Below are positions 4,702-61,133 of a stretch of DNA of 64,000 bases, one piece after another (the first letter of the stretch is position 1; each line of letters begins with the position of its first letter). A program made the translations under genes and the position numbers. The notes beneath the pieces were generated by a model. That model had not been told where the DNA came from, did no database searches, and saw nothing but the letters and a program-made list of their open reading frames with translations. This stretch comes from a bacterium (GTDB lineage: Bacteria > Patescibacteriota > Patescibacteriia > Patescibacteriales > JAKAJF01). The stretch is taken from assembly GCA_021788015.1 (NCBI GenBank), contig JAJYLD010000002.1:26739-90738 (forward strand). Reading direction: 5' to 3'.

Positions 4702-5727
4702 TTATTGTTTGGATATGTATTCGGTTACAATCACGACACCGGGAGCGCCGTTACCGCCGTTATAAGCCGTATAACTGCCCGAACTCCAATCTTCATAAAG
4801 ACTGCCGCCGCCGCCGCCGCTACCATAAGCTTTCCCCGAAGAGCCGTCATTGCCGGCGATATCTCTGCCGCCCGCGCCGAAATGAGAACTACCGCCCATG
4901 CCACCGGGTAAGGGGGGATTATAATATCCGGGATTACCCCAAAAAGAAGGAAATCCGTACTGTCCCGAAATATTCACGTCTCCGCCACTGCCATTCCCGC
5001 CAGCCCAAGACCAGTCAACAGATCCGCCGCCGCCGCCGCCGCCCGTTGCGCTAAGAAAAGGGGAGACCAAAGGTCCGAACGAGGATGTGCCGCCAGATCC
5101 GCCTGAACAGTCGCAAAAATTGTTACTATTTCCTCCTCCTCCTCCTCCTCCGACAACCACGGGTTGTGAAGAACCGATTTGCGCGGCGGTTAATGTTTTT
5201 CTGGCATAACCGCCGCTTGCTCCTCCGCACCCGGGAAAATCTCCCGGATTAGCACAACTGCCCCATTCAAGATAGCCGGCGGCACCGCCGCCTCCGCCGC
5301 CAACCACTTCGATGACAGCGTAAACGAGTCCGGGAGAAGGCGTGTACGTTCCGCTACCGGTGAACACTTTCACGTTTATTTTGTTTATTGCCGCTGATGT
5401 TTGAATCGTGTTATCGGGAAATTGAATGCCACCGCTTGACGATTGGATTATTCCGGTTACGCTCAATTTCTGGTTCGGCGTATCCGTTCCGACGCCGACA
5501 CTGCCCATTAAGGCCGAGTTTCCGGTGACGGCGAAATTTCCACCGATGCCGAGATCGCCTAGTTTTGTTTGACTGGACGCGCTCGTATCGACCGGGGTCG
5601 CGGTATTATTGTTGGGCGGGGTCGCGGTCGGTTCGGTCCAGGTCGGTACTGCAAAAATGTTTCGGGAAGCGATGGAGAGGCCGAGAGCGATCGCGCTTGC
5701 CAATATTATTAAAAATATTTTTTTCAT
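4702..5727 (-). CDS. Secreted glycine-rich protein, phage-tail-fibre-associated Gly_rich-like domain (paralogue 1)
   Basis: Signal peptide; motif SGTYTPSPGLVYAVIEVVGGGGGG; poly-Gly tracts; C-terminal GAPGVVIVTEYI; 5' half nearly identical at DNA level to 5808..6917. Confidence 0.6.
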   Translation of the reverse strand: MKKIFLIILASAIALGLSIASRNIFAVPTWTEPTATPPNNNTATPVDTSASSQTKLGDLGIGGNFAVTGNSALMGSVGVGTDTPNQKLSVTGIIQSSSGGIQFPDNTIQTSAAINKINVKVFTGSGTYTPSPGLVYAVIEVVGGGGGGAAGYLEWGSCANPGDFPGCGGASGGYARKTLTAAQIGSSQPVVVGGGGGGGNSNNFCDCSGGSGGTSSFGPLVSPFLSATGGGGGGGSVDWSWAGGNGSGGDVNISGQYGFPSFWGNPGYYNPPLPGGMGGSSHFGAGGRDIAGNDGSSGKAYGSGGGGGSLYEDWSSGSYTAYNGGNGAPGVVIVTEYISKQ

Positions 5728-5807
5728 TTTCTTTATTGACGGTTTTCAAATTTTTAAGTTCGGAAATGAACGGTAGCGATCCGTAAAGTAATAAAAATAT
5801 CCATATT

Positions 5808-6917
5808 TTATTGCTTTATGTACTCGGTTACTATAACTACACCGCCCGCGCCTGCGCCGCCGTTATGAGCATAAAAATAACCTCCGCATCCGCCGCCGCC
5901 ATAGTTTATTCCATTGCCCGCCCAAGCGCTGCAACCCGGACCAAAATAAGAAGATCCGCCACCATCGAAACTTTGACAACTGGTCTGAATAAGAGCGTTA
6001 AATCCGTCGCTGCCATAAATATTTAAATCTCCGCCGTTACCGTTGCTGCCTACGCCGCCGTTACCGTTGCTATAACCGCCGGTTCCGCCCGATGCGCTAA
6101 GAAAAGGCGATCCCGACGGACCAAATGAAGATGTGCCTCCGTTTATTCCGTTATTGCCGCAACTGCCGTTACCAACTCCGCCGGTTCCGCCCGCGCCGAT
6201 GGTTACGGTCTGAGAAGAACCGATTTGCGCGGCGGTTAATGTTTTTCTGGCATAACCTCCTCCTCCTCCACCACCACCACAATAATTACTGTGGCCGCTG
6301 CACGTATTGTCGCTGAAACTGCCGCCGCCGCCGCCGCCGCCAACCACTTCGATGACAGCGTAAACGAGTCCGGGAGAAGGCGTGTATGTTCCGCTACCGG
6401 TGAACACTTTCACGTTTATTTTGTTTATTGCCGCTGATGTTTGAATCGTGTTGTCGGGAAATTGAATGCCGCCGCTTGACGATTGGATTATTCCGGTTAC
6501 GCTCAATTTCTGGTTCGGCGTATCCGTTCCGACGCCGACACTGCCCATTAAGGCCGAGTTTCCGGTGACGGCGAAATTTCCACCGATGCCGAGATCGCCT
6601 AGTTTTGTTTGACTGGACGCGCTCGTATCGACCGGGGTCGCGGTATTATTGTTGGGCGGGGTCGCGGTCGGTTCGGTCCAGGCGGCAATAATGCTCTGCA
6701 GAGCGATAGAGAGACCGAAAACGATAAGAATTGTCGGGATTAAAAGTAAAAAGTTTTTTATTTTTATCCCTTTGGATGTTTTTTGTTTTTTGTTTGGCAC
6801 AATTTTTTTATGAATCTCGCTCGTTAAAAATTTAATACTAACGAGATTCTTCTTATTTTTGGAGTACTTGAGTATGTTAGTAATTTTATTATACCATAAA
6901 AATCGATTCCGTCGCAA
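5808..6917 (-). CDS. Secreted glycine-rich protein (paralogue 2); true start probably internal or alternative near 6790
   Basis: Shares the ~150-aa N-terminal domain (WTEPTATPPNNN...VVGGGGGG) with 4702..5727; the ORF-track N-terminal 60 aa is low-complexity and precedes the signal-peptide-like segment. Confidence 0.55.
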   Translation of the reverse strand: MRRNRFLWYNKITNILKYSKNKKNLVSIKFLTSEIHKKIVPNKKQKTSKGIKIKNFLLLIPTILIVFGLSIALQSIIAAWTEPTATPPNNNTATPVDTSASSQTKLGDLGIGGNFAVTGNSALMGSVGVGTDTPNQKLSVTGIIQSSSGGIQFPDNTIQTSAAINKINVKVFTGSGTYTPSPGLVYAVIEVVGGGGGGGSFSDNTCSGHSNYCGGGGGGGGYARKTLTAAQIGSSQTVTIGAGGTGGVGNGSCGNNGINGGTSSFGPSGSPFLSASGGTGGYSNGNGGVGSNGNGGDLNIYGSDGFNALIQTSCQSFDGGGSSYFGPGCSAWAGNGINYGGGGCGGYFYAHNGGAGAGGVVIVTEYIKQ

Positions 6918-9854: not shown

Positions 9855-12800
9855 TTATACTTTTGAAAATTGTTTTGTCTTTTCACACCAGGTCCGCGCG
9901 TTAATGAACATGCGGAGCCAGGGGGAATTGACGTTCTTCCATTCCTTGGGCCAGTACGGCCATTGGCGAGGAAGAACCGTTCTCTCCGGGTGGGGCATGA
10001 GAAAAAGAAACCGCCCCGTCTTGTCGGAAAGTCCGGCTATCCCGAAACGGGAACCGTTCGGATTGCAAGGATACTGCTCGGTGATGGCGCCGTCATCATC
10101 CACGTAGCGAATCGGAGCCAATCCGGAATCAAGTATGCGCTTAAGCGTATTTTCCGGAATCACGAAACGGCCTTCACCGTGCGCAACATGAATGCCGAGA
10201 GTCGATTCCTCCATGTCTTCCAGAAAAATCGAATTCGAGGGAAGAATCCTGACATTCACGAAGCGCGACTCGAATTTTTCGCTTTGATTTCTTACCAAAG
10301 CGGGAGACTCGATTTCAGGCATCCGCCATGGCAGAAATCCGAAAAAGGACATGAGCTGGCAGCCGTTGCAGATGCCGAGAGCGAAAGTGTCGGAACGCGC
10401 AAAGAAGCGTCCGATTTCCCATCTCGCTTTCCGGTTATACCGAATTACGCCGGCCTCTCCTTTTCCCGATCCAAGGACATCCTTAAAAGTGAAACCGCCG
10501 GGGAAAATAATTCCGCGGAACGGGTCGAGTGCGATGCGACCATTAGTCAAGTCCGTCATGGTTATGTCACAAGGAACCATCCCGGCAAGAAAGCAGGCGG
10601 CCTTGGCTTCTTCATGGCTGTTCGAGCCCTCTTCCCGGAGCACGGCAACCTTTACCGCCTTGCTCAAGTTTTTAAAATTCGCTTTGTACGCGTCCGGATC
10701 GAAAGATATCCGGAAAGCCGGGCGGAAACGGTCGTACTCGTTGGTACGCGCCATTTTAATGCACGATTCGACCGTCTGGAATTCCTCCATCCGGTACGAA
10801 GTCTCTCTCCAGATCGCGCGAAGTTTGCGCATATCTTCGTCAAGAACCGTTGCACCATTATGCTTTATCCTGATAACTCTACCCTCGACGACCGAACCGA
10901 CGTCGTAAGCAAAAGCATTCTGGCTTAAAGCGGCGATGATTTCCTCTTTGTGCTCGCGCTTACATTCGAGAACGAACCCTAGCTCTTCGTTATAAAGAGT
11001 CTCGAGGACGCTTGCGCTTTCGTGCTCAAGAGAAACATCGACTCCGCATCCGCTCGCGAACGACATCTGGCAGAGGGCCGCGGCCAAACCGCCGCGCTCT
11101 CTTATTTTTACGGATTCGATTTTGCCCGAAGCGACGAACCGCTGCATCTGATCGAAAACATAGTTAAGACGATTAGGATCATCCATGTCCGGGCATTCGT
11201 CTCCGACTTTCCCCAAAACCTGTGCCAAGGCGCTTCCGCCCATTCTTGTCTTGCCCATTGCGAGGTCGACAAAAACAAGCGAATTGCCGGGCGTTTTTAA
11301 ATCAGGGGTAACGCGCTCTTCAATATTGGGGCAGCCCACGTAAGTCGAAAGAATGAGCGTGCCCAGAGAACGCACTTTTATTTTGCGTCCGTTCGGCAAG
11401 GTAATTTCGACGCCGAGGGATAATGAATCTTTTCCACCGTCGATATCGATGCCGAGAATCTTGAGCGCATCTTTTAATGCAACAACTGCGTCATAAAGCC
11501 AGGCCGTGCCGCCTTTCCATTTTGCCGCGAGCATCCAGTTCGCCGAAGATTTTATGTCTCTGCGGGAAGTGATTTTTACTCCGATGAGCTGAAGCAGCGC
11601 TTCGGCCGCCGTCATTCTGGCCATGGCTTCGGGAGAAATCAGTCCTATTGTCGGCCGCATGCCCATTGAACTCGCTTCGCCTACCCTATCGAGATAACTC
11701 GGAGCGATAATGGCGTAATCGGAAATAGGCAGGCCGAAAGGACCGACCCGTTCCGCTTGCACGACTTTACCTGTCACGCTTGAATCCGCTTTGTTAACGG
11801 CCCACTCTTTGGAAGCGACTCCGAGGAGCCGGAAAGTCAAATTCGCCGCATCAAAAGCGGAAAAACGTTTAGGCAAACGCAAAGGCTTTAAGGGAAGTCT
11901 TACGCGGGTGTCGCTGTACGTCTTCCGGGGATAGTCGCCGAGCACGTCCTTAAGGTTGAGGTCGACCGGAGTCGTTCCGTCTTTTTCATCGATGACAACC
12001 GCCCTGCCGTCGCCGGTTATGACGCCGACGATTTCACAAGGACATTTTTCGCGGTCAGCGATGGACTTGATGATTTCCCATCCCTCTTCCCGGACGAGAA
12101 CGACCATTCCTTCCTGATATTCGGCCACCCAGATTTCCATCGTGGACATAGTCGGATCGCCGACGGGGATCTTGCGCAAATAGATTTTCCCCCCGACAAA
12201 ATCCATAATCTCTTTCAAAATATTTCCGTTGCCGCCCGCTCCCTGATCGCCGATGGATTCGATAGGATTTCGCGAGCCCAATTTGATACAAGCGCGGATG
12301 ACTTCGTCCACCTTGTGAGCCATTTCGCCGTTGGCGCGTTGGACGGAGTTGAAATCGAGGTCTTCCCGATTTTGTCCGGCGGTTACGCTTGACGCGGACC
12401 CGCCACCAACTCCGATACGAAAAGCCTTGCCGCCCAACTTTAGAACCAACATGCCTTTTTTGGGCTTATATTTTTTTATATGCCGTGCGTCGATAAAGCC
12501 CAGCCCGCCCGAAAACATGATCGGCTTGTATGTTTCCAGTCTTTGATCGCCGACTCGGAAGCCAAGACTCTCGAATCGCACTTTAACCAAAGGCTCGCCG
12601 AATTCGTTGCCGTCGTTGAAAGCGCCGTTTGTGCCTTTAATATAGAAACCGAGCGGCTTTTCGTATTTCGGGCTGTAATAGAAATCCTTACGTTCCCAGG
12701 GAAGATCATATCCCGGAATATTGAGATTGCCGCCTAAAAATGCGGCCGTCCCGGCAGCCGGAATACCGCCTCTCCCTACCGCCTCATTGTCGCGTCCTCT

Positions 12801-13781: not shown

Positions 13782-14462
13782 CTACGCACCTCCTCCGAAA
13801 AATTTTCTTTTATCGAAATCATCCATGTAAAAAACCTTGCCTTCATGCAGATAGATCTGCCGGTGCACAACCAGGTTAAGGATGTCACTTTGGACGGCAT
13901 GCTCATACGCGTTCACGCGCGCTTTCATAGTTTCAAGCGTATCCGATAAACGGATAGGTACATCTTTTTGTGTGATGATCTGCCCGGTGTCGTAGCCCGA
14001 CAGATCGAACGATGGCACGAAGTGCATTGTCACGGTGCTGTGCGTGATCCCGCCATCTTGGTAAGCGTCCCACACTTTTTTATGTATCTGATCACCGTGC
14101 AGACTTCTCGTGAAAGGCAGGGGGCCGCAATGAATGTTAACTGTCCTCTCCGTCTTGTTGCCGCGAATCGGCCTAAGCCAACCTGACAACATGATGAAAT
14201 CATGCGGATACTTTTCGAAAATGGCTTGGTAGGCTTCTGCCGTATACGGTCCCGGCATGTACACAAATGGGATCCCGTATTTATCGGCCAGAGTTTTAAC
14301 TCCTCCTGCGGGATAGTTCGATACTACGGCCGCAATCTCGGCATCAAGTCTGCCTAGACGGATGTTCAAAATCATCATCTCGCAACCCGAACCGCCTTTT
14401 CCCGGTTCTTTTTTACCACCCGCAAAAACCAAAATCTTCGACTTTTCTTTTTCTCCGTACAT
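13782..14462 (-). CDS. purN: Phosphoribosylglycinamide formyltransferase
   Basis: NIHCGPLP motif (PurN NIHPSLLP-like); formyltransferase fold; adjacent to purL. Confidence 0.7.
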   Translation of the reverse strand: MYGEKEKSKILVFAGGKKEPGKGGSGCEMMILNIRLGRLDAEIAAVVSNYPAGGVKTLADKYGIPFVYMPGPYTAEAYQAIFEKYPHDFIMLSGWLRPIRGNKTERTVNIHCGPLPFTRSLHGDQIHKKVWDAYQDGGITHSTVTMHFVPSFDLSGYDTGQIITQKDVPIRLSDTLETMKARVNAYEHAVQSDILNLVVHRQIYLHEGKVFYMDDFDKRKFFGGGA

Positions 14463-14682
14463 TTTCTTTCTTCTCCTTTTTCACTTTCATTATCCCAAAC
14501 TTCTTAACCTTATCCCTGTATGTTTAATTTTTATTTCAAAGAGCAAACAAAAAGACCAACCTCCTTTTCCTCCATGGGTCAGTCTTTGAATTATTCTTAA
14601 ATTACAATTTTATTCCCAAAAAGTCAAACGCACACAATGTACATATATTAAAATTAAAAAAATTCCAGTTTTAAAAGCACCA

Positions 14683-14876
14683 ATGGGTTTTGGGGCGGAA
14701 TTGCCCGTCTCGCCTTAAGCTCGCCGAGGCGGAAGCGTCAGAGTGAGAGACGAAAATTCCAATCAACGTGATAGCGAATGGGAGCCCCCAAAATTTCCCC
14801 GCCCGCATCGCTACGCGAAGCATTGTGGGCAGGTTGCCTACTTTTTGGTTACAAAAAAGGGCCTAACGCAGCGTTA
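14683..14876. repeat. REP/MITE-like ~190-bp intergenic element, copy 1 (full length); terminal hairpin CCTACTTTTTGGTTACAAAAAAGGG abuts the recQ stop
   Basis: Shares GGGGCGGAATTG...GTGATAGCGAATGGGAGCCCCCAAAATTTCCCCGCCCGCATCGCTACGCGAAGCATTG...TTGGTTACAAAAA..GCGCAGCG with copies at 21528, 24168, 25016, 31043. Confidence 0.7.
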
Positions 14877-17018
14877 TTTCATACTCGCCATCACCAACCT
14901 GATTTCATCCCAACCATAATTATCCCCCAATTCCTTTTTCACCGGCGCCAACCTTCCGATGCCGATTTGTTTGATCGCCCCCCTGATCGCTTTTTCTTTC
15001 TTTGAATCAACGAATTTATTTACATCAACGGCCATTCCTTTTTCTATAAGCCAACATAAATGCTCGACGACTGTGCCCGGTTTCAAATTTCTTATTTGCG
15101 CCATCTCGTCAATCGACATGCCTCTGTTATACAATTCGAAAGTTTCAAGTTGAGTCAGCTTAGTCGCCAATCCGGCTTTTCCGGAAAGATCTTCTTCAAA
15201 TGCGATTACCGGTCTTGCCTCAAAATTATGTCCATGAAATTTTTTTGTATTAGCCGGCATAAATCCACGTCCGGAATTTGCATTTTGGTTCAGTGTGGGC
15301 CCGCGTTCCGGTCCGCGACTGTCCGCGTTGTTGTTGAGGCAGTTATCGCATCTTCCGCATCGTTCAAAATTTTTGTCTCCGAAGTAATCCAAAATAAACG
15401 CTTGGCGGCAGCCGAAATGATAAATATATTCCTCCATATTGTCGAGTTTGCGATAAGCGTTTTTCATTTTTTCTTTGAGCGCGCTAAAATCGATATTAAC
15501 GTCTTTTGCGTCCACCCTTTTTAAAATTCTTATCTCCGTGCCCTTGAACGGCGGCTCGTAATCAATCAAACCGTTTTCGGATAATTTGCGAACAAGGCGC
15601 ATTATGCTTTCTTTTTTTAATTTTAAAATTTCCGCAACCTCGTCAAAATTTCCGCTCCATCCTTTTTCGAGTTCATTGCCGAAGCGATCGAATAACTTCA
15701 CCAAAATTTCTCTTTGGCTTTTGGCGCGGCCCGAAAGCGAATTCAAAATCGAAGCGAAATCTTTTTTTATTTTTACAAAAGCGTTGCCGGTTTTTTCGTG
15801 CGAGCGGGAAATGAATCCTTCTCTTTCCAAAATTTTCAGACTGGTGCCGATCGCCATTTCCGGAACCTGATCGGAAAGCATATCCGCAAGTTCAGCATAC
15901 GTCAAAAGCACGGTATCCGATTCGTAATTTTTTAAAGTTTCATAGATTTCCAAAATTATTTCCGGCGGCGGATTGTCGCCCTTGATAAAAAATTCCTGGA
16001 GATGACGATCGCGGGAATTGTAAAACATGAGACAAAAACTCGGTCTGCCGTCGCGGCCGGCCCGTCCCGCTTCCTGGTAATAGGCTTCAACCGTTCCCGG
16101 CATGTCGTAATGGATGACGAAGCGAATATCTTTTTTATTGATGCCCAATCCGAACGCGTTTGTCGCTATGATCACCTTCACTTTTCCAGTCATGAAATTT
16201 TCCTGGATCCATTTGCGCTCTTCCGGATCCATGCCGGCGTGGTAACTGACTGCCTCAATATTGTTTTCAAGCAAATGATTCAAAAGGGAATCGGCGCGCG
16301 CGCGCGTGCCGACATAGACGATGCCCGTGCCTTGGGGCATGCTTACTATCGCTTCGAGCGCGAGTCGCGGTTTTTGCGAGTCGGCGGCGTGAATGACGCC
16401 GAACTGCAAATTCGGCCGAGCGAAACCGGTAACGACAATTTCGGGATCATTAAGCCCGAGCTGTTTCGCAATATCTTTTTTCACTTCCGGAGTGGCGGTC
16501 GCGGTCAGAGCCAAAACGATCGGATTGCCCAAAAACGAAATCGCATTTTTCAACTTTACGTAGCTCGGCCGAAAATCGTGCCCCCATTGGCTTATGCAAT
16601 GCGCTTCGTCAATCGCGAACAGGCTTACTTTTATATCTTGAAGCGCACGCGCGAATTCGGCGCTATAAAATCTTTCCGGCGCGATGTAAAGCAGCTTGTA
16701 GACGCCGTTTTTCACGTCTTCGATACGTTTCATCGTTTCCGCCTGATTGATTGAAGAATTTATAAACGTCGCCGAAATGCCGATTTTTGTAAGCGAATCG
16801 ACCTGATCTTTCATAAGCGAAATCAAGGGCGAAATCACGATCGTAATTCCGTCCAAAACCAAAGCCGGCAATTGGTAACAAAGCGATTTGCCCCCGCCCG
16901 TCGGCATGATAACAATGGTCGATTTCCCCTGAAGGACATTGTCGATCACTTTTTCCTGGCCGGGACGAAACGAATCATAACCGAAATGTATTTTTAATAA
17001 TTCTAAAATTTGTTGCAT
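14874..17018 (-). CDS. recQ: RecQ-family ATP-dependent DNA helicase with extended C-terminal region
   Basis: DEAHCISQWGHDFRP, zinc-binding CGRCDNC, helicase motifs I-VI. Confidence 0.9.
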   Translation of the reverse strand: MQQILELLKIHFGYDSFRPGQEKVIDNVLQGKSTIVIMPTGGGKSLCYQLPALVLDGITIVISPLISLMKDQVDSLTKIGISATFINSSINQAETMKRIEDVKNGVYKLLYIAPERFYSAEFARALQDIKVSLFAIDEAHCISQWGHDFRPSYVKLKNAISFLGNPIVLALTATATPEVKKDIAKQLGLNDPEIVVTGFARPNLQFGVIHAADSQKPRLALEAIVSMPQGTGIVYVGTRARADSLLNHLLENNIEAVSYHAGMDPEERKWIQENFMTGKVKVIIATNAFGLGINKKDIRFVIHYDMPGTVEAYYQEAGRAGRDGRPSFCLMFYNSRDRHLQEFFIKGDNPPPEIILEIYETLKNYESDTVLLTYAELADMLSDQVPEMAIGTSLKILEREGFISRSHEKTGNAFVKIKKDFASILNSLSGRAKSQREILVKLFDRFGNELEKGWSGNFDEVAEILKLKKESIMRLVRKLSENGLIDYEPPFKGTEIRILKRVDAKDVNIDFSALKEKMKNAYRKLDNMEEYIYHFGCRQAFILDYFGDKNFERCGRCDNCLNNNADSRGPERGPTLNQNANSGRGFMPANTKKFHGHNFEARPVIAFEEDLSGKAGLATKLTQLETFELYNRGMSIDEMAQIRNLKPGTVVEHLCWLIEKGMAVDVNKFVDSKKEKAIRGAIKQIGIGRLAPVKKELGDNYGWDEIRLVMASMK

Positions 17019-17096
17019 GTATGTTTGACAGAAAATTTTTCAAACGCTAAATTAAGATTATCAGACGCGACCTATTCAGTCAAAAGGAGGGCATAC

Positions 17097-17375
17097 ATGG
17101 TTCATTTAACAAATCCTTTTAATTTGAATTTTGAAGAATTCCAAAATTTGAATTGGGAAGGCCTGCTCATACTTTATGTAAAGGCAAGCGGGATGACCAA
17201 TGACCTGGAAATCAAAATCTTTGTGAAACATCCTTCCTGGGATTGGATTTTGATGGCGTTCAGTCCCGGAAACGTAATCGCCGCCGGGCCAAAAGAACAC
17301 AAGCCCACAGACAAAGAGATTTATGATGTAGCGAAAAAAATCGATGCCGCTGTGTTCTTATGCGTTCGAGAATAA
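17097..17375 (+). CDS. Small protein carrying one copy of a novel ~65-aa repeat domain (HPxxxWIIIAxxPGNVIAAGPKEH)
   Basis: Strong SD AAAAGGAGGG 6 nt upstream of ATG at 17097; domain repeated twice more in the next ORF. Confidence 0.6.
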   Translation: MVHLTNPFNLNFEEFQNLNWEGLLILYVKASGMTNDLEIKIFVKHPSWDWILMAFSPGNVIAAGPKEHKPTDKEIYDVAKKIDAAVFLCVRE

Positions 17376-17407
17376 ATACAAACCTGCTCAGAGGAGGATA
17401 ATGACTC

Positions 17408-17974
17408 ATGAATCTTTTTACTTCAAGCCTCGATATCTTGCGAAGCATGGACGAAAGACTGGTTAAAGAAATGCACGACCGGGCCGTAGAAAAAAGCGGC
17501 GAGTTCGTGGATAAATATTTTATAAAGCATCCGCGGACCCACTGGATTATCATCGCGCATAATCCCGGCAACGTGATTGCCGCCGGGCCAAAAGAACATG
17601 AACCCTTCGAAGACGAGCTGGAACTGCTGGCCGCGCAGTTCAATGTTCCCGTTTTTCTTTATTCCCGGACGGACCCGTTCGCCTTAACATTCGCAGATTT
17701 AAAAAAGATGGATGAGGACGAAATTGACGATGTCTTTAGACAGGGTTCGGCAATAAACCGGGAATTCGCGGATGAATATTTCAAAGAGCATCCGCAAATC
17801 GGCTGGATTATAATCGCGCATAAGCCGGAGAATATAATCGCCGCTGGTCCGCTAGAGCATGCGCCCTATTCCAGCGATCTCGATGTCTTGGCGGAACAAT
17901 TGGGTGTCATCGTTTTTGCCTACTCCAGACCTTTTCATTATGACGAGTTAACTGAGGAAATCATTTTTTCTTAA
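17408..17974 (+). CDS. Protein with two tandem copies of the same ~65-aa repeat domain
   Basis: SD GAGGAGGA upstream; repeats KHPRTHWIIIAHNPGNVIAAGPKEHEP and EHPQIGWIIIAHKPENIIAAGPLEHAP each followed by VF.YSRxxPF. Confidence 0.65.
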   Translation: MNLFTSSLDILRSMDERLVKEMHDRAVEKSGEFVDKYFIKHPRTHWIIIAHNPGNVIAAGPKEHEPFEDELELLAAQFNVPVFLYSRTDPFALTFADLKKMDEDEIDDVFRQGSAINREFADEYFKEHPQIGWIIIAHKPENIIAAGPLEHAPYSSDLDVLAEQLGVIVFAYSRPFHYDELTEEIIFS

Positions 17975-17988
17975 ATTGTTCATCTCTA

Positions 17989-18017
17989 TAAAGCTGTTTT
18001 AAGCAGCTTTTTTTATT
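17989..18017 (+). terminator. Rho-independent terminator (AAAGCUGuuuuaAGCAGCUUUUUUUAUUU)
   Basis: Perfect 7-bp stem plus U-run directly after 17974. Confidence 0.65.
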
Positions 18018-18169
18018 TGACTTCATTTCAAATATAATTTAAGGTAAGGGCAAGAACGGAGGAGCTTTTAAATTTTTGCAGCCAAAATTTTCAGATTGCA
18101 GTAAGAATGGTATTTGGCGACAGACTCAAAAGGAGGGCCTCGCCCTTTAAAATTGAAGGAGGAAATGAC

Positions 18170-19282
18170 ATGAAAATTGTTCGGAACAAGGCGAAAGAAA
18201 TCATCATGATCATTCTTTTGCGCTTTTTTTGCGCTCATGTTCATCTCAGAGAAGACGACGAAGAGGATTTGCTCATGACCGATGTTGTTCACTTCAGCGA
18301 TCCTTACGAATACGTTACGGCCATGGGCAATACGAAAAATCCGATTTCAACCGGACCGGAAGCGATCGCGTATAAAAAGAAAAAAATAGAAAAGCACAAA
18401 CCGGGATTCAAGGCGATCCCCACGATCATGCTCACGAACAGCACCACTGTCGAGACAATCAGGAAGGCTCACCGCCTCGGTATTAAGGTCGTAAAGTACA
18501 TGCCCGCGGGAACAACGACGAATACGGAAAAGGGCTATATTCCGCTTTACGATCTTATCCGAACCAAGGGCGATGTGCTTCGCGAAATGCAAAAACGGAA
18601 AATGATCCTCTCGACCCACATGGAACTGGTCAGATTCCCGGGCGCGACAGAGGATATACATTATCTCTATCGGGAAGAGGAAGCAATTCCGTATCTCGAA
18701 GCTCTGATCAAGGTATTTCCGAAGCTAAAGATTATCGTCGAGCATGCCTCGACGAAAAAAATGATTGAGTTCGTCAAGGCCGCTCCGGCTCATGTCTTTG
18801 CCACTCTCACTTTGCAGCATGCCCTCTTCCATAAAGGCTATGTCTTCGACAAAAATCTTAAGGTAAAAGACCCACTTTATCTTTGTCTGCCTTGCCTTAA
18901 GGAAATCGAAGACACGCTCGCCGTGAGAGAAGCGATGGTTTCGGGCAATCCGAAATTCTTCTTCGGAACCGATGACGCGCCGCATCGCCTTTATAAAAAA
19001 ATGGGACCGAAGCCGCCATCCGGCATATCGACGCCTGGCATCGTCGCGATAGCCCTACTTTGCAAAATTTTTGAGGAGGCGAACGCGCTTAAACGTCTTG
19101 AAAATTTTGCAGCCAGATTCGGCGCAAAGGCTTACGGTCTCTCGCTCAAAGGCTGGAAAAAAATGAAAGTCGCGAAAGAGCCCTGGACCGTTGCCGAAAG
19201 TTATAACGACATCGTTCCGCTTATGTCTGGTGAAACGTTAGACTGGCAACTCGTAGGCGAAGTTTTCGACCTGACACATTAA
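18170..19282 (+). CDS. pyrC: Class II (E. coli PyrC-like) dihydroorotase-family amidohydrolase
   Basis: Motifs align with E. coli PyrC: HVHLRED (HLHLRDG), KYMPAGTTTN (KLYPANATTN, carboxylated Lys), LKIIVEHASTK, TLQHALF, LYLCLPCLK, FFGTDDAPH (FLGTDSAPH), GETLDW; SD GGAGGA before ATG at 18170. Confidence 0.75.
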   Translation: MKIVRNKAKEIIMIILLRFFCAHVHLREDDEEDLLMTDVVHFSDPYEYVTAMGNTKNPISTGPEAIAYKKKKIEKHKPGFKAIPTIMLTNSTTVETIRKAHRLGIKVVKYMPAGTTTNTEKGYIPLYDLIRTKGDVLREMQKRKMILSTHMELVRFPGATEDIHYLYREEEAIPYLEALIKVFPKLKIIVEHASTKKMIEFVKAAPAHVFATLTLQHALFHKGYVFDKNLKVKDPLYLCLPCLKEIEDTLAVREAMVSGNPKFFFGTDDAPHRLYKKMGPKPPSGISTPGIVAIALLCKIFEEANALKRLENFAARFGAKAYGLSLKGWKKMKVAKEPWTVAESYNDIVPLMSGETLDWQLVGEVFDLTH

Positions 19283-19287
19283 CATAA

Positions 19288-19316
19288 CCCGCTCGCATGA
19301 GCGGGCTTTTTATTTT
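19288..19316 (+). terminator. Rho-independent terminator after the pyrC-like gene (CCCGCUCGCAUGAGCGGG plus U-run)
   Basis: Perfect 7-bp GC stem plus CTTTTTATTTT. Confidence 0.7.
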
Positions 19317-28519: not shown

Positions 28520-29917
28520 TTGAATATTTTTATTTTTAAAAATATCCATATGCAAACAAATCCAAATATTTTCAAAGCCTATGATATCCGCGGCGTTTAC
28601 GACCGGGACCTTGACGAAGAAACGGCCTATAAGCTCGGGCTCGCTTTCAGCGCCATGCGCAAAAAAGAATTGAACGGCAAAGATCCGATAAAATTGGCGG
28701 TCGGCTCCGACATGCGCTTGTCTTCGCCGACTTTAAAAGAAAGTTTAACTAAAGGACTTACGGAAGGCGGGGCGGACGTTATCGATATCGGACTGGCATC
28801 GACTCCGACATTCTATTTCGCGGTCGCGCATTATAAATACGACGGCGGTATTCTCGTTTCCGCTTCGCACAATCCGAAAGAATACAACGGCTTTAAAATG
28901 GTGCGCGAAAGAGCCATGCCCGTGAGCAAAGAAACGGGAATTTTTGAATTGCGCGACAGAGTCATAAACAACGAGGTGAGCCGGGCGGAAAAATTCGGCG
29001 AAGTGACCAAACAAGAAAATGTTTTAAGGGACCAAGTTGAGCATGATCTAAAATTCGCCGATCTCTCAAAAATCGAACCGTTGAAAATTGTGATTGACCC
29101 GGCAAACGGCATGGGTATTTTGTATTTTGACGAATTATTCAAACATGTCCCAGGGGAAATCGTAAAAATGAATTGGGAATTGGACGGAACTTTTCCCGCT
29201 CACGAAGCCGATCCGCTCAAGGCGGAAAACATGGAAAGTCTTTGTGAAAAAATCAAAGAAACCGAAGCGAATTTGGGAATCGCGACCGACGGTGACGGAG
29301 ACAGAATTTTTTTCGCGGACGACAAAGGAGAAAGACTTGATCCGGGAATCACGCGCGCCATCCTTTGCAAAATATTTTTACGCGAACGCCCGGGAGCGAA
29401 GATTTGCTACGATATCCGCCCGGGGAAAATTACTCCCGATACCATTTTGGAAAACGGCGGCATTCCGATTATCACCCGAGTCGGCCATTCGCTCATTAAA
29501 GAAAAGACTCTACAAGAAGGCGCTTATTTCGCGGGCGAATCTTCCGGACATTTCTTTTTGAACATGGATGAAGGCTGCTACGAAATTCCGATGGTTGTAA
29601 CTTTAAAAATTTTGGAAGAACTGTCCGTTGCCAAAACTAAATTTTCCGACTATATAAAACCGTACAAGAAATACTTCTCTTCCGGAGAAATAAATTCGCG
29701 CGTTGAAAATATTCCCGCCATCTTGGAAAAAATAAAAGAAAAATACAATGACGCGAAAATGAATGAGCTCGACGGAATTACGATCGAATATTCGGACTGG
29801 TGGTTTAACGTTCGCCCTTCGAACACGGAACCGTTGATTCGCCTTAATCTGGAAGCGAAAGGTAAAGAGCTCATGGAAAAAAAACGCGATGAAATCTTGA
29901 CAATTATCAAAAGTTGA
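28520..29917 (+). CDS. Phosphomannomutase/phosphoglucomutase-family enzyme (start may be Met11 at 28550)
   Basis: Active-site SASHNPKEYNGFK, Mg loop DGDGDR, alpha-D-phosphohexomutase layout. Confidence 0.8.
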   Translation: MNIFIFKNIHMQTNPNIFKAYDIRGVYDRDLDEETAYKLGLAFSAMRKKELNGKDPIKLAVGSDMRLSSPTLKESLTKGLTEGGADVIDIGLASTPTFYFAVAHYKYDGGILVSASHNPKEYNGFKMVRERAMPVSKETGIFELRDRVINNEVSRAEKFGEVTKQENVLRDQVEHDLKFADLSKIEPLKIVIDPANGMGILYFDELFKHVPGEIVKMNWELDGTFPAHEADPLKAENMESLCEKIKETEANLGIATDGDGDRIFFADDKGERLDPGITRAILCKIFLRERPGAKICYDIRPGKITPDTILENGGIPIITRVGHSLIKEKTLQEGAYFAGESSGHFFLNMDEGCYEIPMVVTLKILEELSVAKTKFSDYIKPYKKYFSSGEINSRVENIPAILEKIKEKYNDAKMNELDGITIEYSDWWFNVRPSNTEPLIRLNLEAKGKELMEKKRDEILTIIKS

Positions 29918-29969
29918 TGTAATATTGGACAAATCGGGGTAACAATTCATATCAGAGAGGGGACAATTT

Positions 29970-30176
29970 GTGCATAATGGTAACGAGGCAGAAATAAACA
30001 ATTTATTGAAGCTTTTAAAAAATAAACCATTATTTAAGGCAGCGGGGTCTCGCGGAGAATTTGAAATTTTAGGAAAATATCATTCAAAAATTTATAATGC
30101 CGATTTTGTTATTTTATGGGATCCCAAAACCAAGAGGTTTGCTATTGCAAAACTCTCGGATATATCTCCCGTTTAG
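29970..30176 (+). CDS. Hypothetical small protein
   Basis: ORF only; weak support. Confidence 0.25.
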   Translation: MHNGNEAEINNLLKLLKNKPLFKAAGSRGEFEILGKYHSKIYNADFVILWDPKTKRFAIAKLSDISPV

Positions 30177-30313
30177 CGGTTTCTTCCCAAACCGCTTTTT
30201 TATTTTTCAAAATCAAAACGGCCCTTTCGAGCCGTTTTTCATTTTTAGGTTTTGCCGCCGAACGCGTTTTCGTCACGAAGATTTTAAATTTGCGGTAGAA
30301 ACGACATTCTCCC

Positions 30314-30628
30314 TCAGGCCTTTTTAAATACTTCTAAAATTTCTTTCGCACTTTTTAAATCTAGATCCGAGAAATTCAATTTCACTCTGTCTTCGTATAA
30401 TTTATACATTTCCCGTTGAATATCGTCGTAATGAATACCGATACCGCTTTTTATCCGGTCACGGTATTTTTTTAAAATTTCCAAAATCACCTTCCTGTTT
30501 TTCTCGTCCAAATTCCGGAAATGCGAATTCTCCCGAACCAATTCGTTAAACTTTCTTTCAAACTCTTCGGAAGTTAAATTGCTAAAATTGTTTTTTAAAT
30601 CGGATGCTTGCATATATTTTATTTGCAA
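30314..30628 (-). CDS. Hypothetical protein
   Basis: ORF with 10-nt overlap to upstream minus-strand gene (operon-like). Confidence 0.4.
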   Translation of the reverse strand: MQIKYMQASDLKNNFSNLTSEEFERKFNELVRENSHFRNLDEKNRKVILEILKKYRDRIKSGIGIHYDDIQREMYKLYEDRVKLNFSDLDLKSAKEILEVFKKA

Positions 30629-31005
30629 TCTTCGGGACAGCTACAATGATTTTCTCCGTATTGCGGTTCGCATTTGCCGTTGCCGCATGGAGCGCATGTT
30701 GGCAAACCGACCAAAGTTTTATCTAGAGAACAATCTTGCACGTCATTTCCAAAAATCGCCTTTAAACCGTCGCAACATTCTTTGGGGCCAAATTTAGATA
30801 TCGGGGGCATGATACCTTCGCCGGCAGTTGCGCAAGCGTCTTGTTTTTTTAACCCCGTTTGTCGGAGAGTTGTATCGACAAATATCGGCAGCAGCGGAGT
30901 TTTTGTTTGTTTTTGCAACCAAATGAGTCCGCCAATTATGACGGCCAATACAACCAAAACTAAAATTATCCCGACCGTAATTCCTATTTTTATTTTTGTA
31001 TTCAT
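30619..31005 (-). CDS. Small membrane-anchored cysteine-rich (10 Cys) secreted protein
   Basis: N-terminal TM anchor then CATAGEG...ECCDGL...CAPCGNGKCEP...CSCPEDCK. Confidence 0.5.
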   Translation of the reverse strand: MNTKIKIGITVGIILVLVVLAVIIGGLIWLQKQTKTPLLPIFVDTTLRQTGLKKQDACATAGEGIMPPISKFGPKECCDGLKAIFGNDVQDCSLDKTLVGLPTCAPCGNGKCEPQYGENHCSCPEDCK

Positions 31006-31042
31006 ACTTCTTACGTTACCACCTGGTGTTCAAAAAATACTC

Positions 31043-31096
31043 GGGGTGTTTTTGCTTACTTTTTGGTTACAAAAAGCAGGGTCTATCGCAGCATTA
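31043..31096. repeat. REP/MITE-like element copy 5 (terminal hairpin module only), abutting the trpS stop
   Basis: GCTTACTTTTTGGTTACAAAAAGCAGGGTCTATCGCAGCA. Confidence 0.55.
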
Positions 31097-32083
31097 AATT
31101 ATCCCCATCTTCTCTTTCACTCTTCTTAACGTCTCCTCCGCGATAGGCCGCGCTCGCTTTGCGCCATGTTCAAGAATGTCTTTTATATCTTTATCGCCGT
31201 ATTGATTGTATTTTTTTTGAAAATCGGCGAGAAAATTTCCAACGACTTCGGCCAGTCCTTTTTTAAAATCGCCATAGCCCTTGCCCTTGAATTCTTTTTC
31301 CAAATCCTTAACGTTTTTCCCGGACAGCAAAGAATAAATGTTCAACAAATTAGCAATCGCCGGTTTTTCTTCTTTATCATATTTAATTTCCGCGCCCGAA
31401 TCCGTAACCGCGCGCATAATTTTTTTCGCCGCCGCTTCCGGCGTATCGGTCAAAGCGATATAATTCGCCGGACTCGTCGCGCTCTTCGACATTTTTTTAA
31501 GAGGATCGTCAAGTCCCATGATACGCGCGCCTTCTTTTTGCATTTTCACATCCGGAATTTTAAAAACCTCGCCATAAGCATTGTTGAAACGTTTGGCCAA
31601 ATCGCGCGTCAGTTCGACATGCTGTTTCTGATCTTCGCCGACCGGCACGACATCGGTATTGTACAAAAGAATATCCGCGGCCATGAGCACGGGATAGTCG
31701 AAGAGACCGACGCCCGCCGATTCCTTACTTTCTCCCACCTTCTCCTTAAACTGCGTCATTTTGTTCAGATCGGCAACGCGCGCGCCTGCGCAATTCAAAA
31801 TCCACGCCAATTCGGTATGCGCGGTTACATGCGACTGCTGAAAAATAATTGATTTCTTCGGATCGATGCCGGCGGCCAAATATGTTTTGACCACATCCAA
31901 AATTTGCTCGCCAAATCTTTTTGGATCCTGCCTGACTGTAATCGCATGATAATCGACGACGCAAAAAATCGAATTGTAATCTTTCTGCATCTCCACCCAT
32001 TGGGCAATCGCACCGAGATAATTCCCGATATGAAGACTTCCCGAAGGCTGGACGCCGGAAAAAATTGTTTTTTTCGTTTCCAT
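31094..32083 (-). CDS. trpS: Tryptophanyl-tRNA synthetase
   Basis: HIGH motif (SLHIGNYLGA), KMSKS, class I Trp/Tyr RS architecture. Confidence 0.9.
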   Translation of the reverse strand: METKKTIFSGVQPSGSLHIGNYLGAIAQWVEMQKDYNSIFCVVDYHAITVRQDPKRFGEQILDVVKTYLAAGIDPKKSIIFQQSHVTAHTELAWILNCAGARVADLNKMTQFKEKVGESKESAGVGLFDYPVLMAADILLYNTDVVPVGEDQKQHVELTRDLAKRFNNAYGEVFKIPDVKMQKEGARIMGLDDPLKKMSKSATSPANYIALTDTPEAAAKKIMRAVTDSGAEIKYDKEEKPAIANLLNIYSLLSGKNVKDLEKEFKGKGYGDFKKGLAEVVGNFLADFQKKYNQYGDKDIKDILEHGAKRARPIAEETLRRVKEKMGII

Positions 32084-34707: not shown

Positions 34708-34768
34708 CCCCTTAATCCCCTCCTTAGCAAGGAGGGGAAATTTCCCTCTCCTGTTCCAGGGGAGGGTT
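34708..34768. repeat. GC-rich hairpin repeat cluster (CCCCTCCTTAGCAAGGAGGGG and CCCTCTCCTGTTCCAGGGGAGGG) with G-tract run GGGGAGGGTTAGGGTGAGG at the tsaD stop
   Basis: Same hairpin family as 36171..36292; unusual GC content in an AT-rich spacer. Confidence 0.6.
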
Positions 34769-36170: not shown

Positions 36171-36315
36171 CTCCCCTAACCCCTCCTTAGTAAGGAGGGG
36201 AATTTTAATTTCCCCCTTCGAAAGGGGGATGAAAAATCTTTTCCTATTTTATCTCAATTTTTAACCTCCCTAACCCTCCTTTAAAAGGAGGGGCCTAATC
36301 CCTAATCCCTAATCC
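36171..36315. repeat. GC-rich hairpin repeat cluster (CCCCTCCTTAGTAAGGAGGGG; CCCCCTTCGAAAGGGGG; CCCTCCTTTAAAAGGAGGG) followed by (CCCTAAT)3, which contains the TAG stop of manC
   Basis: Three consecutive perfect hairpins then cctaatccctaatccctaatccc; the minus strand reads ...GATTAGGGATTAGG with TAG as the stop codon. Confidence 0.65.
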
Positions 36316-57759: not shown

Positions 57760-58212
57760 TTATCCATTATTAACATTGACACCGTTGTTACCGTTATTAT
57801 TGATTGTCCCACCCAGCTTTTTAAAGACAAAGCCGGTAATTATATATGCCGAAGCTATTATAATCAAACCGATTATTCCTCGGAAAATTAATTTTTGCGC
57901 TTTCTCGACCTTTTCTTCGTTACCGCCCGCGGTAAGCCAATTGTAGCCGGCGAGAATGATTATAATTATGAAAATTATTCCCAACAACCCAAGAAACGCC
58001 TGTATGAATGAAGCGATTATATCCGCAGGCATCGCCCCCGCATCGTATCCGGCGCTGTCGTTGAACGACCCCGCTTGGTCGCCCATTTGCCCCACGGTAT
58101 CCGGATTTAATCCAATGGCGTAAGCATGATTCGAAATTAAGAAGGTTAAAAAAAGTGCGATCAAAGAAAAAAATTTTTTTATTCTGTTGCGCGCCTTTTG
58201 CTTTTCTAACAT
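57760..58212 (-). CDS. VirB2/TrbC-like two-helix secreted membrane protein (array copy 1; Asn-rich C-terminal tail)
   Basis: Sec signal, variable ectodomain, conserved LGLLGIIFIIIIILAGYNWLTAGGNEEKVEKAQK...IGLIIIASAYIITGFV. Confidence 0.5.
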   Translation of the reverse strand: MLEKQKARNRIKKFFSLIALFLTFLISNHAYAIGLNPDTVGQMGDQAGSFNDSAGYDAGAMPADIIASFIQAFLGLLGIIFIIIIILAGYNWLTAGGNEEKVEKAQKLIFRGIIGLIIIASAYIITGFVFKKLGGTINNNGNNGVNVNNG

Positions 58213-58275
58213 ATTGTTTTCTCTTTATTAAAATCCGCTCGTTTTTTATTATATGAAATTTGGGGTTTTTACTAT

Positions 58276-58674
58276 TTAACTATATAAAAGTTTATTTAAA
58301 ACAAAATTCCAAATCGCGTAAGCCCCGATAATTATGATTAAACCGATTAAAGTGCGCCACAGCGTATCCTTGGCTCTGTCCACCTTTTCTTCATTGCCGT
58401 TTGCGGTCATCCAATTATAACCGGAGTATATGATCAAAATAATAAAAATTATGCCGAGCAATCCCAAAAAAGCGCCGACAACTTGTCCGATAATTTGTGA
58501 TAATGAATATTGATTGACGTCGTTGGTTTGATAGCCGCCGGTTCCCGCAGTGCCCTGGAGATTTTTAAACATGGCATTGTTCGTATTTACCGAACCGGAA
58601 GCATCGGCAAAGACCGTATGACCGACAAAAGCCATGGATAAGCTGAAAATCAAAATTAAAATTATTTTTTTCAT
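58276..58674 (-). CDS. VirB2/TrbC-like two-helix protein (array copy 2)
   Basis: LGLLGIIFIILIIYSGYNWMTANGNEEKVDRAKD...IGLIIIIGAYAIWNFVL. Confidence 0.5.
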   Translation of the reverse strand: MKKIILILIFSLSMAFVGHTVFADASGSVNTNNAMFKNLQGTAGTGGYQTNDVNQYSLSQIIGQVVGAFLGLLGIIFIILIIYSGYNWMTANGNEEKVDRAKDTLWRTLIGLIIIIGAYAIWNFVLNKLLYS

Positions 58675-58686
58675 ATTACTGATTGT

Positions 58687-59154
58687 TTATGGCGCTGGCG
58701 ACTGGGTTTGCTGCGTAGACGAAGATGGATTTGTGTACTTTGCCGCAAAGTAGTAAAGAACAAAGTAAGTGATTGCGTATGCGGAAACTACAATGATTAA
58801 ACCGATAATCGCGTTTTTTAAAATTCCCTGTGCCTTGTCAACTTGTTCGCCATTGCCCGAAGCCGTCATCCAAAGATAGCCGGCATAAAAAGCCAAAACG
58901 ATAAATATTACGCCCAAAAGCGATAAAAATATCTGAATAAAACTTCCTATAAGTTGAGTAAGCGCGGCCGTGCTATCTGTTACGGGGGCATATTGAGCGG
59001 CGGATCCCGCGTCTTTAAGCAAACCCGAAACCGTGGAGGGATTGGAACCGGGGGTATTATTGGTGGCTATGACAAAGGCCGGAAAAAGAAAAATTGAAAT
59101 TAAGAAAACGAGGGTTAAAATTTTTATTTTTTTGATCATATTAGAATCCCGCAT
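58687..59154 (-). CDS. VirB2/TrbC-like two-helix protein (array copy 3)
   Basis: LSLLGVIFIVLAFYAGYLWMTASGNGEQVDKAQG...IGLIIVVSAYAITYFVL. Confidence 0.5.
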   Translation of the reverse strand: MRDSNMIKKIKILTLVFLISIFLFPAFVIATNNTPGSNPSTVSGLLKDAGSAAQYAPVTDSTAALTQLIGSFIQIFLSLLGVIFIVLAFYAGYLWMTASGNGEQVDKAQGILKNAIIGLIIVVSAYAITYFVLYYFAAKYTNPSSSTQQTQSPAP

Positions 59155-59614
59155 TATAGCCCGTCACGCGCGCCAACGAACTGATTATAAAATAACTTAT
59201 GACATAAAGCGCGGCAATAAGCACGACTCCTATCGTCGAATGCAAAATTGTTCTTTTCGCTTCCCCGATTTTTTCTTCATTCCCGGCGGACGTGAGCCAA
59301 ATGTATCCTCCCCAGACAAGTCTTATTAGAAAAAGTACGCCGACGAAAGGAAAAATTAAAAGAACATCTCCGATATAATTCGCCAAAGCCGAGCTTGAAT
59401 CTCCTTGAATGTTATTATAAACGGAATTTTGCGCCTGGCTTGCCGTTGCGTCATCAAGATTGGTTTGCCAAGCCCCCAAACCGGCGGCATTGACGACATT
59501 GACCGACGCGACAGATTTAATCCCGATGACTCCGAACAAAAATGAAATTCCAAAATATTGGACAAATAAGAAAAGAATTAACGCCAAAAATTTATTTTTT
59601 TTTACAAAATGCAT
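59141..59614 (-). CDS. VirB2/TrbC-like two-helix protein (array copy 4, most divergent)
   Basis: FVGVLFLIRLVWGGYIWLTSAGNEEKIGEAKR...IGVVLIAALYVISYFII. Confidence 0.45.
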   Translation of the reverse strand: MHFVKKNKFLALILFLFVQYFGISFLFGVIGIKSVASVNVVNAAGLGAWQTNLDDATASQAQNSVYNNIQGDSSSALANYIGDVLLIFPFVGVLFLIRLVWGGYIWLTSAGNEEKIGEAKRTILHSTIGVVLIAALYVISYFIISSLARVTGYNAGF

Positions 59615-59616
59615 AC

Positions 59617-60024: not shown

Positions 60025-60195
60025 CCCGTTAAAAATAAACCCTGTAGTACACCTCGTAAACTCGGCGACTAAGGGGCGAGGCGTGGTTGAATAATAGTTT
60101 TGTGCAATGGAACTTGTCCCGCAGCCAAATACAACAGGATTTACGGTATCGTGATTCGCGATCAAAAAGGCAGGGCTTTTACGGAATTCAATTTC

Positions 60196-60603: not shown

Positions 60604-60628
60604 AATATAAGTTTTGATTTTTTGTTTT

Positions 60629-61033: not shown

Positions 61034-61133
61034 ATTTTTAATTTTAGTTTTTATTGTTCACTGCTTTGCACGCGAATTTTTCCCGTCCAAAGCAGTGGAT
61101 TCCTAAAAAGAAATCCACAAATTTTAGAGGAAA

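Follow-up and report, generated by a model that had tools for sequence, protein, structure and literature searches.

Repetitive extragenic palindromes (REPs) are extragenic by definition. In REP/BIME (bacterial interspersed mosaic element) systems there are tens to hundreds of copies per genome, and the gene for the REP-associated tyrosine transposase (RAYT, a Y1 HUH enzyme) is typically flanked by REPs. REP/BIME elements in the operons of E. coli act as barriers to 3' exonucleases. Elements of the IS200/IS605 type need a fixed target of 4-5 nt beside one end, excise seamlessly and are strand-biased. The BOX elements of Firmicutes and the Correia elements or NEMIS (Neisseria miniature insertion sequences) of Neisseria are modular elements with a high degree of structure, found close to the ends of genes and transcribed together with their neighbours; Correia elements have inverted repeats and a TA duplication, and the BOX modules are not nested palindromes. 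We know of no unit that either BOX or Correia/NEMIS shares with other phyla. The Rickettsia palindromic elements (RPEs), which Ogata et al. are said to have described in 2000, are reportedly of roughly 100-150 bp, placed in frame within conserved genes and also between genes. REPs are defined by a GTAG or CGTC tetranucleotide tag and are proposed to stabilise the 3' ends of mRNA (PMC3733652). Here we analyse a repeat present as five copies (c1 to c5) in a 64-kb stretch of contig JAJYLD010000002.1 (the window), from the genome of an uncultured, ultrasmall bacterium of the Patescibacteria, or candidate phyla radiation (CPR). The repeat is a composite of hairpin units that we term HA, HB and HC, and we compare it with these described systems.

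The initial annotation of the window had drawn attention to a family of five copies in one orientation, and both points hold. By BLASTN, nhmmer and fuzzy motif matching there are exactly five related sequences, all on the same strand and all downstream of co-oriented minus-strand genes; the gene to the right of every copy is on the minus strand. Pairwise they are 81-91% identical over 45-178 nt, and since the E-values run from 1e-8 down to 1e-36 the similarity is far beyond chance. Our preferred explanation, to which we give a probability of roughly 0.55, is that the five sequences are one lineage-specific, non-coding, non-autonomous mosaic repeat, REP/BIME-like and mobilised in trans. The evidence for this comes from the anatomy of the copies, from the behavior of the HB unit in other genomes and from the comparison with syntenic relatives.

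The copies do not conform to the uniform element of about 190 bp that had been proposed. They are mosaics, 66-226 nt in length, that are built of separately varying hairpin units, three of the copies being long (c1, 201 nt; c2, 149 nt; c4, 226 nt) and two short (c3, 91 nt; c5, 66 nt). The motif GGGGCGGAATTG, formerly held to be common to all, is found in three of the five. On the gene strand, going away from the stop codon, the order is the end motif CGCTKCGCTAGG, HC, HB, the right arm of HA, an inner hairpin, the left arm of HA and an A/T-rich far end GGTGnTTTTAAAAC. HC is an A/T-stemmed hairpin of 27-29 nt, CCCTACTTTTTG-TAAC-CAAAAAGTAGG. HA is a long hairpin with further hairpins in its loop, so that hairpins are nested inside the loops of both HC and HA. 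HC lies 11-12 nt from one end of the composite and the foot of HA lies 10-17 nt from the other, and no terminal inverted repeats were found at the composite ends. The positions of the copies and their units are given in Table 1.

Table 1. Copies of the composite repeat and their constituent units in the window.
Feature	Positions	Strand	Remarks
c1, long form	14673..14873	minus	directly after the recQ stop (TTA 14874-14876 on the plus strand)
c1, left arm	14673-14703	plus-strand reading
c1, inner hairpin	14704-14752	plus-strand reading
c1, HA right arm	14768-14797	plus-strand reading
c1, HB	14798..14833	minus	gene strand CCTGCCCACAATGCTTCGCGTAGCGATGCGGGCGGG; member of the cross-phylum 36-nt family
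c1, HC	14836-14862	plus-strand reading
c1, end motif	14863-14873	plus-strand reading
c2, compact form	21521..21669	minus	between convergent genes
c2, short inner hairpin	21553-21570
c2, HB	21592..21627	minus	gene strand CCTGCCCGCAATGCTTCGCATAGCGATGCGGGCGGG
c2, HC	21630-21658
c2, end motif	21659-21669
c3, short form	24169..24259	minus	both ends present; HD-domain gene stop at 24260-24262
c3, HA right arm	24190-24216
c3, HC	24220-24247
c4, long form	25007..25232	minus
c4, HB	25133..25168	minus	gene strand CCCGTCCGCAATGCTTCGCATAGCGATGCGGGCAGG
c4, HC	25172-25221		diverged
c4, end motif	25222-25232		TAG stop of the Elp3-like gene at 25222-25224
c5, remnant	31028..31093	minus	degenerate far end; trpS TAA stop at 31094-31096
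c5, HC	31054-31082
c5, end motif	31083-31093

The units appear and vanish as discrete blocks between copies. Alignment reveals one kind of inner hairpin in c1 and c4, and a short, different one in c2. c3 has neither HB nor the left arm, and c5 is reduced to the end motif and HC with a degenerate far end. Compared with c2, c3 is empty at the HB position, reading CAA|AAAGTTTT against CAA[HB]GAAGTTTT, a difference of exactly 36 nt. In c4 the HC unit has diverged and carries an extra GC hairpin within its loop. Both strands of c2 fold as single-stranded DNA with far greater stability than shuffled sequences (z = -5.9 and -6.1), and the RNA folds of the composite are alike on the two strands.

HB is found well outside the window. 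One genome per species was scanned for the 20-nt loop of HB, which is present at no fewer than 116 loci (at least 116, with about 2 expected by chance). Stems were not required by the search, and yet among the matches listed all but one, in Filimonas (L013), have the 20-mer between stems of the CCYGCCYG/CRGGCRGG type. The Filimonas match is likely a chance hit. Exact consensus stems, CCCGCCTG and CGGGCAGG, are present in about 90 of the 120 HB copies listed. Among 80 loci listed, about 44 are in Patescibacteria of many classes, 17 in Verrucomicrobiota and five in Kiritimatiellia or Lentisphaerae, together with a few metagenome-assembled genomes labelled Bdellovibrionales or Gammaproteobacteria. 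The HB-bearing Verrucomicrobiota include a 4.2-Mb chromosome and a 1.9-Mb contig. HB is also present in two viral contigs, where the context is uninformative. Conservation is 80-99% at every position of HB and drops to background from the first base outside it. The flanks are mutually unrelated across loci, with no motif and no target-site duplication detected in them. HB is nested in the loop of another HB at two loci (L047 and L084) and is in tandem at a third (L114). HB behaves as a unit that proliferates independently across phyla, with exact ends.

The composite as a whole was also searched for. When c1, c2 and c4 were compared by nhmmer with the 116 HB-bearing loci, the syntenic relatives and the window flanks, either the HB region alone was matched or nothing. 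BLASTN of c2 against plasmid and phage collections gave no match. A metagenome scan with a pattern from the HA arm returned 34 unrelated loci, mostly of another repeat family, and no copy of the composite. Most of those matches (L119-L152) come from an element (…GTGATATAATTGGAGCCCCCAAAATTTTGTAATGGGTCACATGACC…) that is present in several JGI samples; it is unrelated, highly repeated and about 200 nt or more in length.

The fold of HB was examined across 17 distinct variants. A 4-nt tail followed by a 12-pair interrupted hairpin is 95.6% paired, and five pairs are changed on both sides. Covariation is 0.188 against 0.096 in shuffles, none of 500 of which reach 0.188, though the variants are few and their outer stem is fixed by the pattern with which they were collected. 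The register that pairs from the first base gives no excess of covariation.

Within genes HB has a preferred orientation and reading frame. Of the 120 copies listed, 69 lie within predicted open reading frames (ORFs), with 62 of the 69 pointing the same way as the ORF. When a copy is counted only if 60 or more open codons flank it on either side, 31 of 37 are in one frame, reading PARNASHSDAGG; five of the six frames are open, yet this single frame predominates. The polarity of HB in the window relative to the upstream genes is the same as its polarity within genes elsewhere. Orientation with respect to GC skew is 71:37, a weaker bias than that inside genes. The hosts are conserved, essential proteins and include aminoacyl-tRNA synthetases of the IleRS, MetRS, AlaRS and PheT types as well as TrpS, two SecA proteins, GyrA, FtsZ, a peptide release factor and MiaA. 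Synonymous positions of HB are as conserved as the rest, and two imperfect stem positions that are synonymous are kept in 80-88% of copies. There is therefore constraint, or recency, at the nucleotide level.

TrpS provides examples of filled and empty alleles. The 12-residue HB is a clean insertion by comparison with the TrpS encoded in the window and with other relatives. Two TrpS proteins of 337 aa (P0121 and P0123) have the insert, and a third of 325 aa (P0124) lacks it. P0124 is 92.9% and 92.3% identical to P0121 and P0123 respectively, and those two are only 90.2% identical to each other. At the DNA level the empty locus (L162) differs from the two filled loci (L043 and L086) by an exact 36-nt indel, with no duplication and no scar. 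In a second TrpS clade three proteins (P0130, P0135 and P0159) have 12-residue inserts at the same site, with an empty one (P0186) nested among them. The DNA of an insert in this clade (L163) is a 36-nt variant of HB identical to the canonical unit at 30 of 36 positions, and four of the six differences form two compensatory pairs. P0159 has an additional HB-like insert at another site. The pattern of filled and empty alleles therefore requires that HB was lost precisely or that it was inserted repeatedly at a single site, and in either case a seamless turnover is implied.

Other in-frame palindromes, or inserts that resemble them, were observed in homologues and in the window. The TrpS of the relative L157 (1612-2682) has two in-frame hairpin inserts with stems of the HB type, CCTGCCTACCGGACAGGCAGG (LPTGQAG) and CCCGCCTACGCTGAAGCTTCGGTGGGCAAG (PAYAEASVGK). 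In the window, TruB (61610-62413, minus strand) contains at 62072-62100 an in-frame hairpin, CCCGCCCGCCTGTCCGGCAGGCAGGCAGGCGG, that is rich in GC and has stems of the HB type around a minimal loop; it encodes approximately PSRPPVRQAGRR and splits the TruB_N Pfam match in two. Short inserts resembling translated palindromes are found at variable positions in Elp3 (P0003, P0005, P0007, P0015-P0017 and P0020) and in TrpS (P0192 and P0225). The insert peptides in Elp3 and TrpS of CPR bacteria include TQNFASLR, SPQPPLLKG, PLNPPFARG and SAQGGSASDG. These variable inserts suggest that there may be several families of coding palindromes.

The placement of the composite had been described as exactly at the 3' ends of genes. 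This is so for four copies, which lie at a stop codon or supply it. In c1 and c5 the end motif lies flush with the TAA stop, of recQ and trpS respectively. In c3 there is an offset of 1 nt, the copy ending 1 nt ahead of the HD-domain gene's stop. c2 departs from the description, since it ends 50 nt beyond the folD stop (21720-21722); TTA directly follows it, and this is not the folD stop. c4 does supply the TAG of the Elp3-like gene as had been claimed, with three preceding codons (S-L-R) instead of four coming from its end motif. Elp3 homologues terminate 0-4 residues past the same YMVK motif. Apart from these three codons and the stop the composite is non-coding, and no copy lies inside a gene. 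The HD-domain gene (196 residues, 24260-24850) is bracketed by c4 and c3 in direct orientation, and this arrangement could favour deletion or duplication by recombination.

The sequence examined comprises about 82 kb, that is the 64-kb window plus flanks of 9.7 kb upstream (L158) and 8.4 kb downstream (L160). All five copies are confined to 16.4 kb of this, no further copy being found in the rest of the window or in either flank, and these are the only copies known. The window is identical to contigs in the ENA assembly ERZ27233565 and in a Logan assembly. Elp3 homologues are at most 70% identical, and the named ones are from Patescibacteria. The relative L155 shares the gene order TsaD-TrpS ... 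Elp3 ... SHMT-FolD-RecQ-methyltransferase. In L155 only 6 bp separate trpS from the next gene and a spacer of 15 bp follows recQ, and L155 has none of the modules. In L157 different GC-rich hairpin composites start right after the HD and FolD stops. The two relatives therefore indicate that junctions occupied in the window are short in a relative, and that placing hairpin composites directly behind stops is a general habit of these compact genomes, not peculiar to this family. FolD and RecQ are neighbours in L155, but in the window a block of 4.4 kb on the plus strand (17010-21403), with c2 at its edge, comes between them. The block holds two ORFs of unknown function, a dihydroorotase (TIGR00856, below cut-off), a radical SAM protein with weak viperin/SPASM-like hits and a UPRTase. 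The window also has an intergenic pair of another small hairpin, CCCCTCCTTAG[C/T]AAGGAGGGG, at 34716-34738 and 36180-36200; a similar unit follows the HD gene of L157 (about 10970-11000). As a label, 'REP/MITE-like' (MITE, miniature inverted-repeat transposable element) is fair for the family, given its imperfect GC-rich palindromes, conserved ends and variable interior, and the absence of its modules from the syntenic relative.

We propose that the mosaic would have grown by seamless insertion of hairpin units into single-stranded DNA, both in hairpin loops and in spacers. The composite would then have been copied locally into short spacers between co-directional genes that are adjacent in the syntenic relative, as well as into one convergent junction (c2). 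The agent would be a trans-acting, strand-specific enzyme, for which the nearest analogues are the HUH/Y1 transposases of the REP/RAYT and IS200/IS605 systems. The copies are probably at stop codons because the ancestral spacers were tiny, so that insertion elsewhere would have hit coding sequence or a ribosome-binding site; a preference for TAA may add to this. As a by-product the upstream mRNAs would bear very stable 3' or intercistronic hairpins, by analogy with the REP/BIME-containing operons of E. coli.

Several observations count against this explanation. Pfam and NCBIfam scans of the window ORFs, which are housekeeping genes, an array of type IV secretion system (T4SS) pilins and unknowns, found no Y1/HUH, TnpB, DDE transposase or integrase, and there is no transposase-like ORF in the approximately 18 kb of flanks. 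When 834 ORFs around 118 HB copies were clustered, no recurrent neighbouring protein family emerged. HB has no target motif, unlike IS200/IS605. The composite copies are few, clustered and 9-19% diverged, so that no recent movement of the composite is demonstrated. The nearest relative is only about 69% identical in Elp3, and for this reason the empty sites of L155 do not prove insertion over loss. Gene orientation and replication orientation are confounded in the window. Lastly, the stem of HC in c4 is kept through three compensatory pair changes relative to c2, which would also fit a selected RNA structure.

More tentatively than the above, we suggest that HB and its relatives with CCYGCC...GGCRGG stems may be the substrate of an undescribed DNA insertion/excision system common to Patescibacteria and bacteria of the PVC (Planctomycetes-Verrucomicrobia-Chlamydiae) group. 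The system would insert an oligonucleotide, made up of a tail and a hairpin, into single-stranded DNA with no target sequence, duplication or scar, and HB could therefore live in essential genes as a tolerated 12-residue loop. The composite of the window would then be a local pile-up of units of the HB type.

Two other explanations of the composite merit consideration, and we regard each as rather improbable. The first is that it is a selected RNA module, a structure in the 3'-UTR (untranslated region) or between cistrons that serves to end transcription, to stop 3' exonucleases or to guide processing of the upstream genes; the copies would in that case be alike through a shared function, or because a useful module was duplicated, and not through mobility. 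The position of all five copies downstream of co-oriented genes, four of them at the stop codon, speaks for such a function, as do the very stable structure predicted on the gene strand and the compensatory changes in c4 noted above. The five upstream genes lack a canonical terminator, and nearby genes on both strands have one. Yet the terminator suggested in the initial annotation is not supported in its canonical form. No copy contains a GC-rich hairpin followed by a U-tract on the gene strand, and a canonical Rho-independent terminator is thus rejected. Nor is there covariation among four copies in RNAalifold, and an Rfam search returned only tRNAs passing the gathering scores, and nothing credible at E up to 5 over positions 14000-32000. 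The HC stems are decayed in c1 and c5. The syntenic L155 and L157 do without the modules, their spacers at these junctions being either short and bare or occupied by hairpins of quite another kind, and HB plainly spreads as DNA into coding sequences elsewhere. The composite might affect the RNA 3' end, perhaps as the stabiliser that the initial annotation had suggested. Given the 6 and 15 bp that separate co-directional genes at the trpS and recQ junctions of L155, the copies are probably intercistronic or 3'-terminal in longer transcripts, which is the setting of the exonuclease barriers formed by REP/BIME elements in E. coli.

The second is that the composite is strictly a transposase-less derivative of an IS200/IS605-type element, or a RAYT substrate, inserted as single-stranded DNA immediately 3' of a TAA in the lagging-strand template, so that stop codons would be the target. 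In c1, c2 and c5 the end motif comes straight after a TAA, that of c2 not being a stop codon, and in c3 the TAA is offset by 1 nt. There are hairpins near both ends and no terminal inverted repeats, all copies share the polarity of the G-rich strand, and HB has seamless filled and empty alleles with a tail-plus-hairpin architecture resembling the ends of IS200/IS605-type elements. However, c4 has no TAA. Similarity at the far end continues through a TAA (TTTTAAAAC), and a duplication of TAA is for that reason indistinguishable from element sequence. The TAA found at either end of c1-c3 is no mark of a duplication, since the similarity of the sequence carries on past it. Moreover, the count of TAA beside the composite is confounded by stop codons and A/T-rich spacers. 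TAA beside the end motif is compatible with a TAA preference, and equally with selection acting on ancestral spacers that were tiny. Neither of the REP tags, GTAG or CGTC, is present, and HB, the only unit with statistics, has no target motif. The check for IS200/IS605 TnpA or RAYT genes that had been advised gave none in the window or its flanks, no ORF scanned has a Y1/HUH or TnpB domain, and a tblastn search of 1.27 Mb of sequence with an IS200 TnpA query, a weak test, found no match. Target-specific insertion by such enzymes, as first proposed, is not shown. Mobilisation related to IS200/IS605 or RAYT is plausible only as an analogy, the tag being absent and HB having no fixed target.

A reading of the copies as attC-like sites marking the 3' ends of integron-type cassettes would explain imperfect palindromes in a single orientation at gene 3' ends, and is rejected as extremely improbable on finding no GTTRRRY core (the boundaries read GCGTTATTT, GCGTTAAAA and GCGCTTATT), housekeeping genes with synteny conserved in a relative, and no integrase in the window. 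A MITE of a DDE transposase was also rejected, the composite having no inverted repeats and HB no target-site duplication.

Three further features of the window are recorded here. Positions 57760-61529 hold six or seven tandem paralogues encoding small T4SS_pilin/TrbC-like proteins. At 4702-6917 there are two tandem Gly_rich_2-domain proteins sharing a segment of about 410 nt at 90% identity (5162-5572 and 6207-6612). RecQ (14874-17018) has about 190 residues between Helicase_C, which ends at aa 324, and RecQ_Zn_bind, which starts at aa 513; this linker is usually short, and the RecQ of the relative is similar in length.

These repeats have practical consequences. A repeat that supplies a stop codon and C-terminal residues, and a unit that adds 12 residues to marker proteins of CPR bacteria, affect gene calls, alignments and phylogenomics. 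The exact ends of HB, with no motif or duplication, and its filled and empty alleles point to a seamless insertion/excision activity, and the enzyme would be an interesting candidate for a tool. The near identity of 36-mers from Patescibacteria with those from Verrucomicrobiota or Kiritimatiellia could make HB a compact marker for the exchange of DNA by episymbionts with free-living bacteria. If the hairpins do stabilise upstream mRNAs, they would be a cheap regulatory device in genomes poor in regulators.

The closest likeness to a described system is with REP/BIME and REPINs. The units are imperfect GC-rich palindromes, with HB (36 nt) and HC in the size range of 20-40 nt. They are assembled into mosaics that lie in spacers inside or after operons and have no terminal inverted repeats, and HB folds as a tetranucleotide tail plus hairpin. 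The tail of HB is CCTG (CAGG on the other strand) and not GTAG or CGTC, and the CTAC...GTAG of HC occurs only inside its stem, never as a 5' tag. No RAYT gene is seen in the window or flanks, nor does one recur near HB copies. HB is mostly in coding sequence and translated, while the composite itself is extragenic save for the Elp3 codons. HB is near-identical between unrelated phyla, and only five copies of the composite are known, from about 82 kb of the genome. The searched library held no paper linking CPR genomes with REP- or RPE-like elements, and broader queries of it gave general papers on REPs and unrelated ones.

With BOX and Correia/NEMIS the composite shares modularity, a high degree of structure and a position near gene ends, and differs in being made of nested palindromes with neither the inverted repeats nor the TA duplication of Correia. 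With the IS200/IS605 elements and PATEs (palindrome-associated transposable elements) it shares hairpins near the ends and a lack of inverted repeats and target duplication, and the filled and empty TrpS alleles of HB match their seamless behavior. It differs from IS200/IS605 in that HB has no fixed target and in that no TnpA or TnpB was found in the ORFs scanned. For the composite, TAA abuts the end in three of the five copies, with a 1-nt offset in one more, a count confounded as noted above. The likeness to RPEs concerns HB only, as a palindromic repeat in frame in conserved genes with one frame predominant, and with intergenic copies too; the composite of the window is non-coding but for the three codons and stop of Elp3. 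HB is far shorter, at 36 bp (12 residues) against roughly 100-150 bp, is spread over Patescibacteria and the PVC group and not one genus, and has exact filled and empty alleles among close relatives. The searched library, to which this absence is confined, contained no paper with the DNA or peptide of HB or with related palindrome peptides of CPR bacteria. What sets HB apart from these systems is that a unit of 36 nt is at once distributed over several phyla, resident in frame within essential genes and turned over seamlessly.

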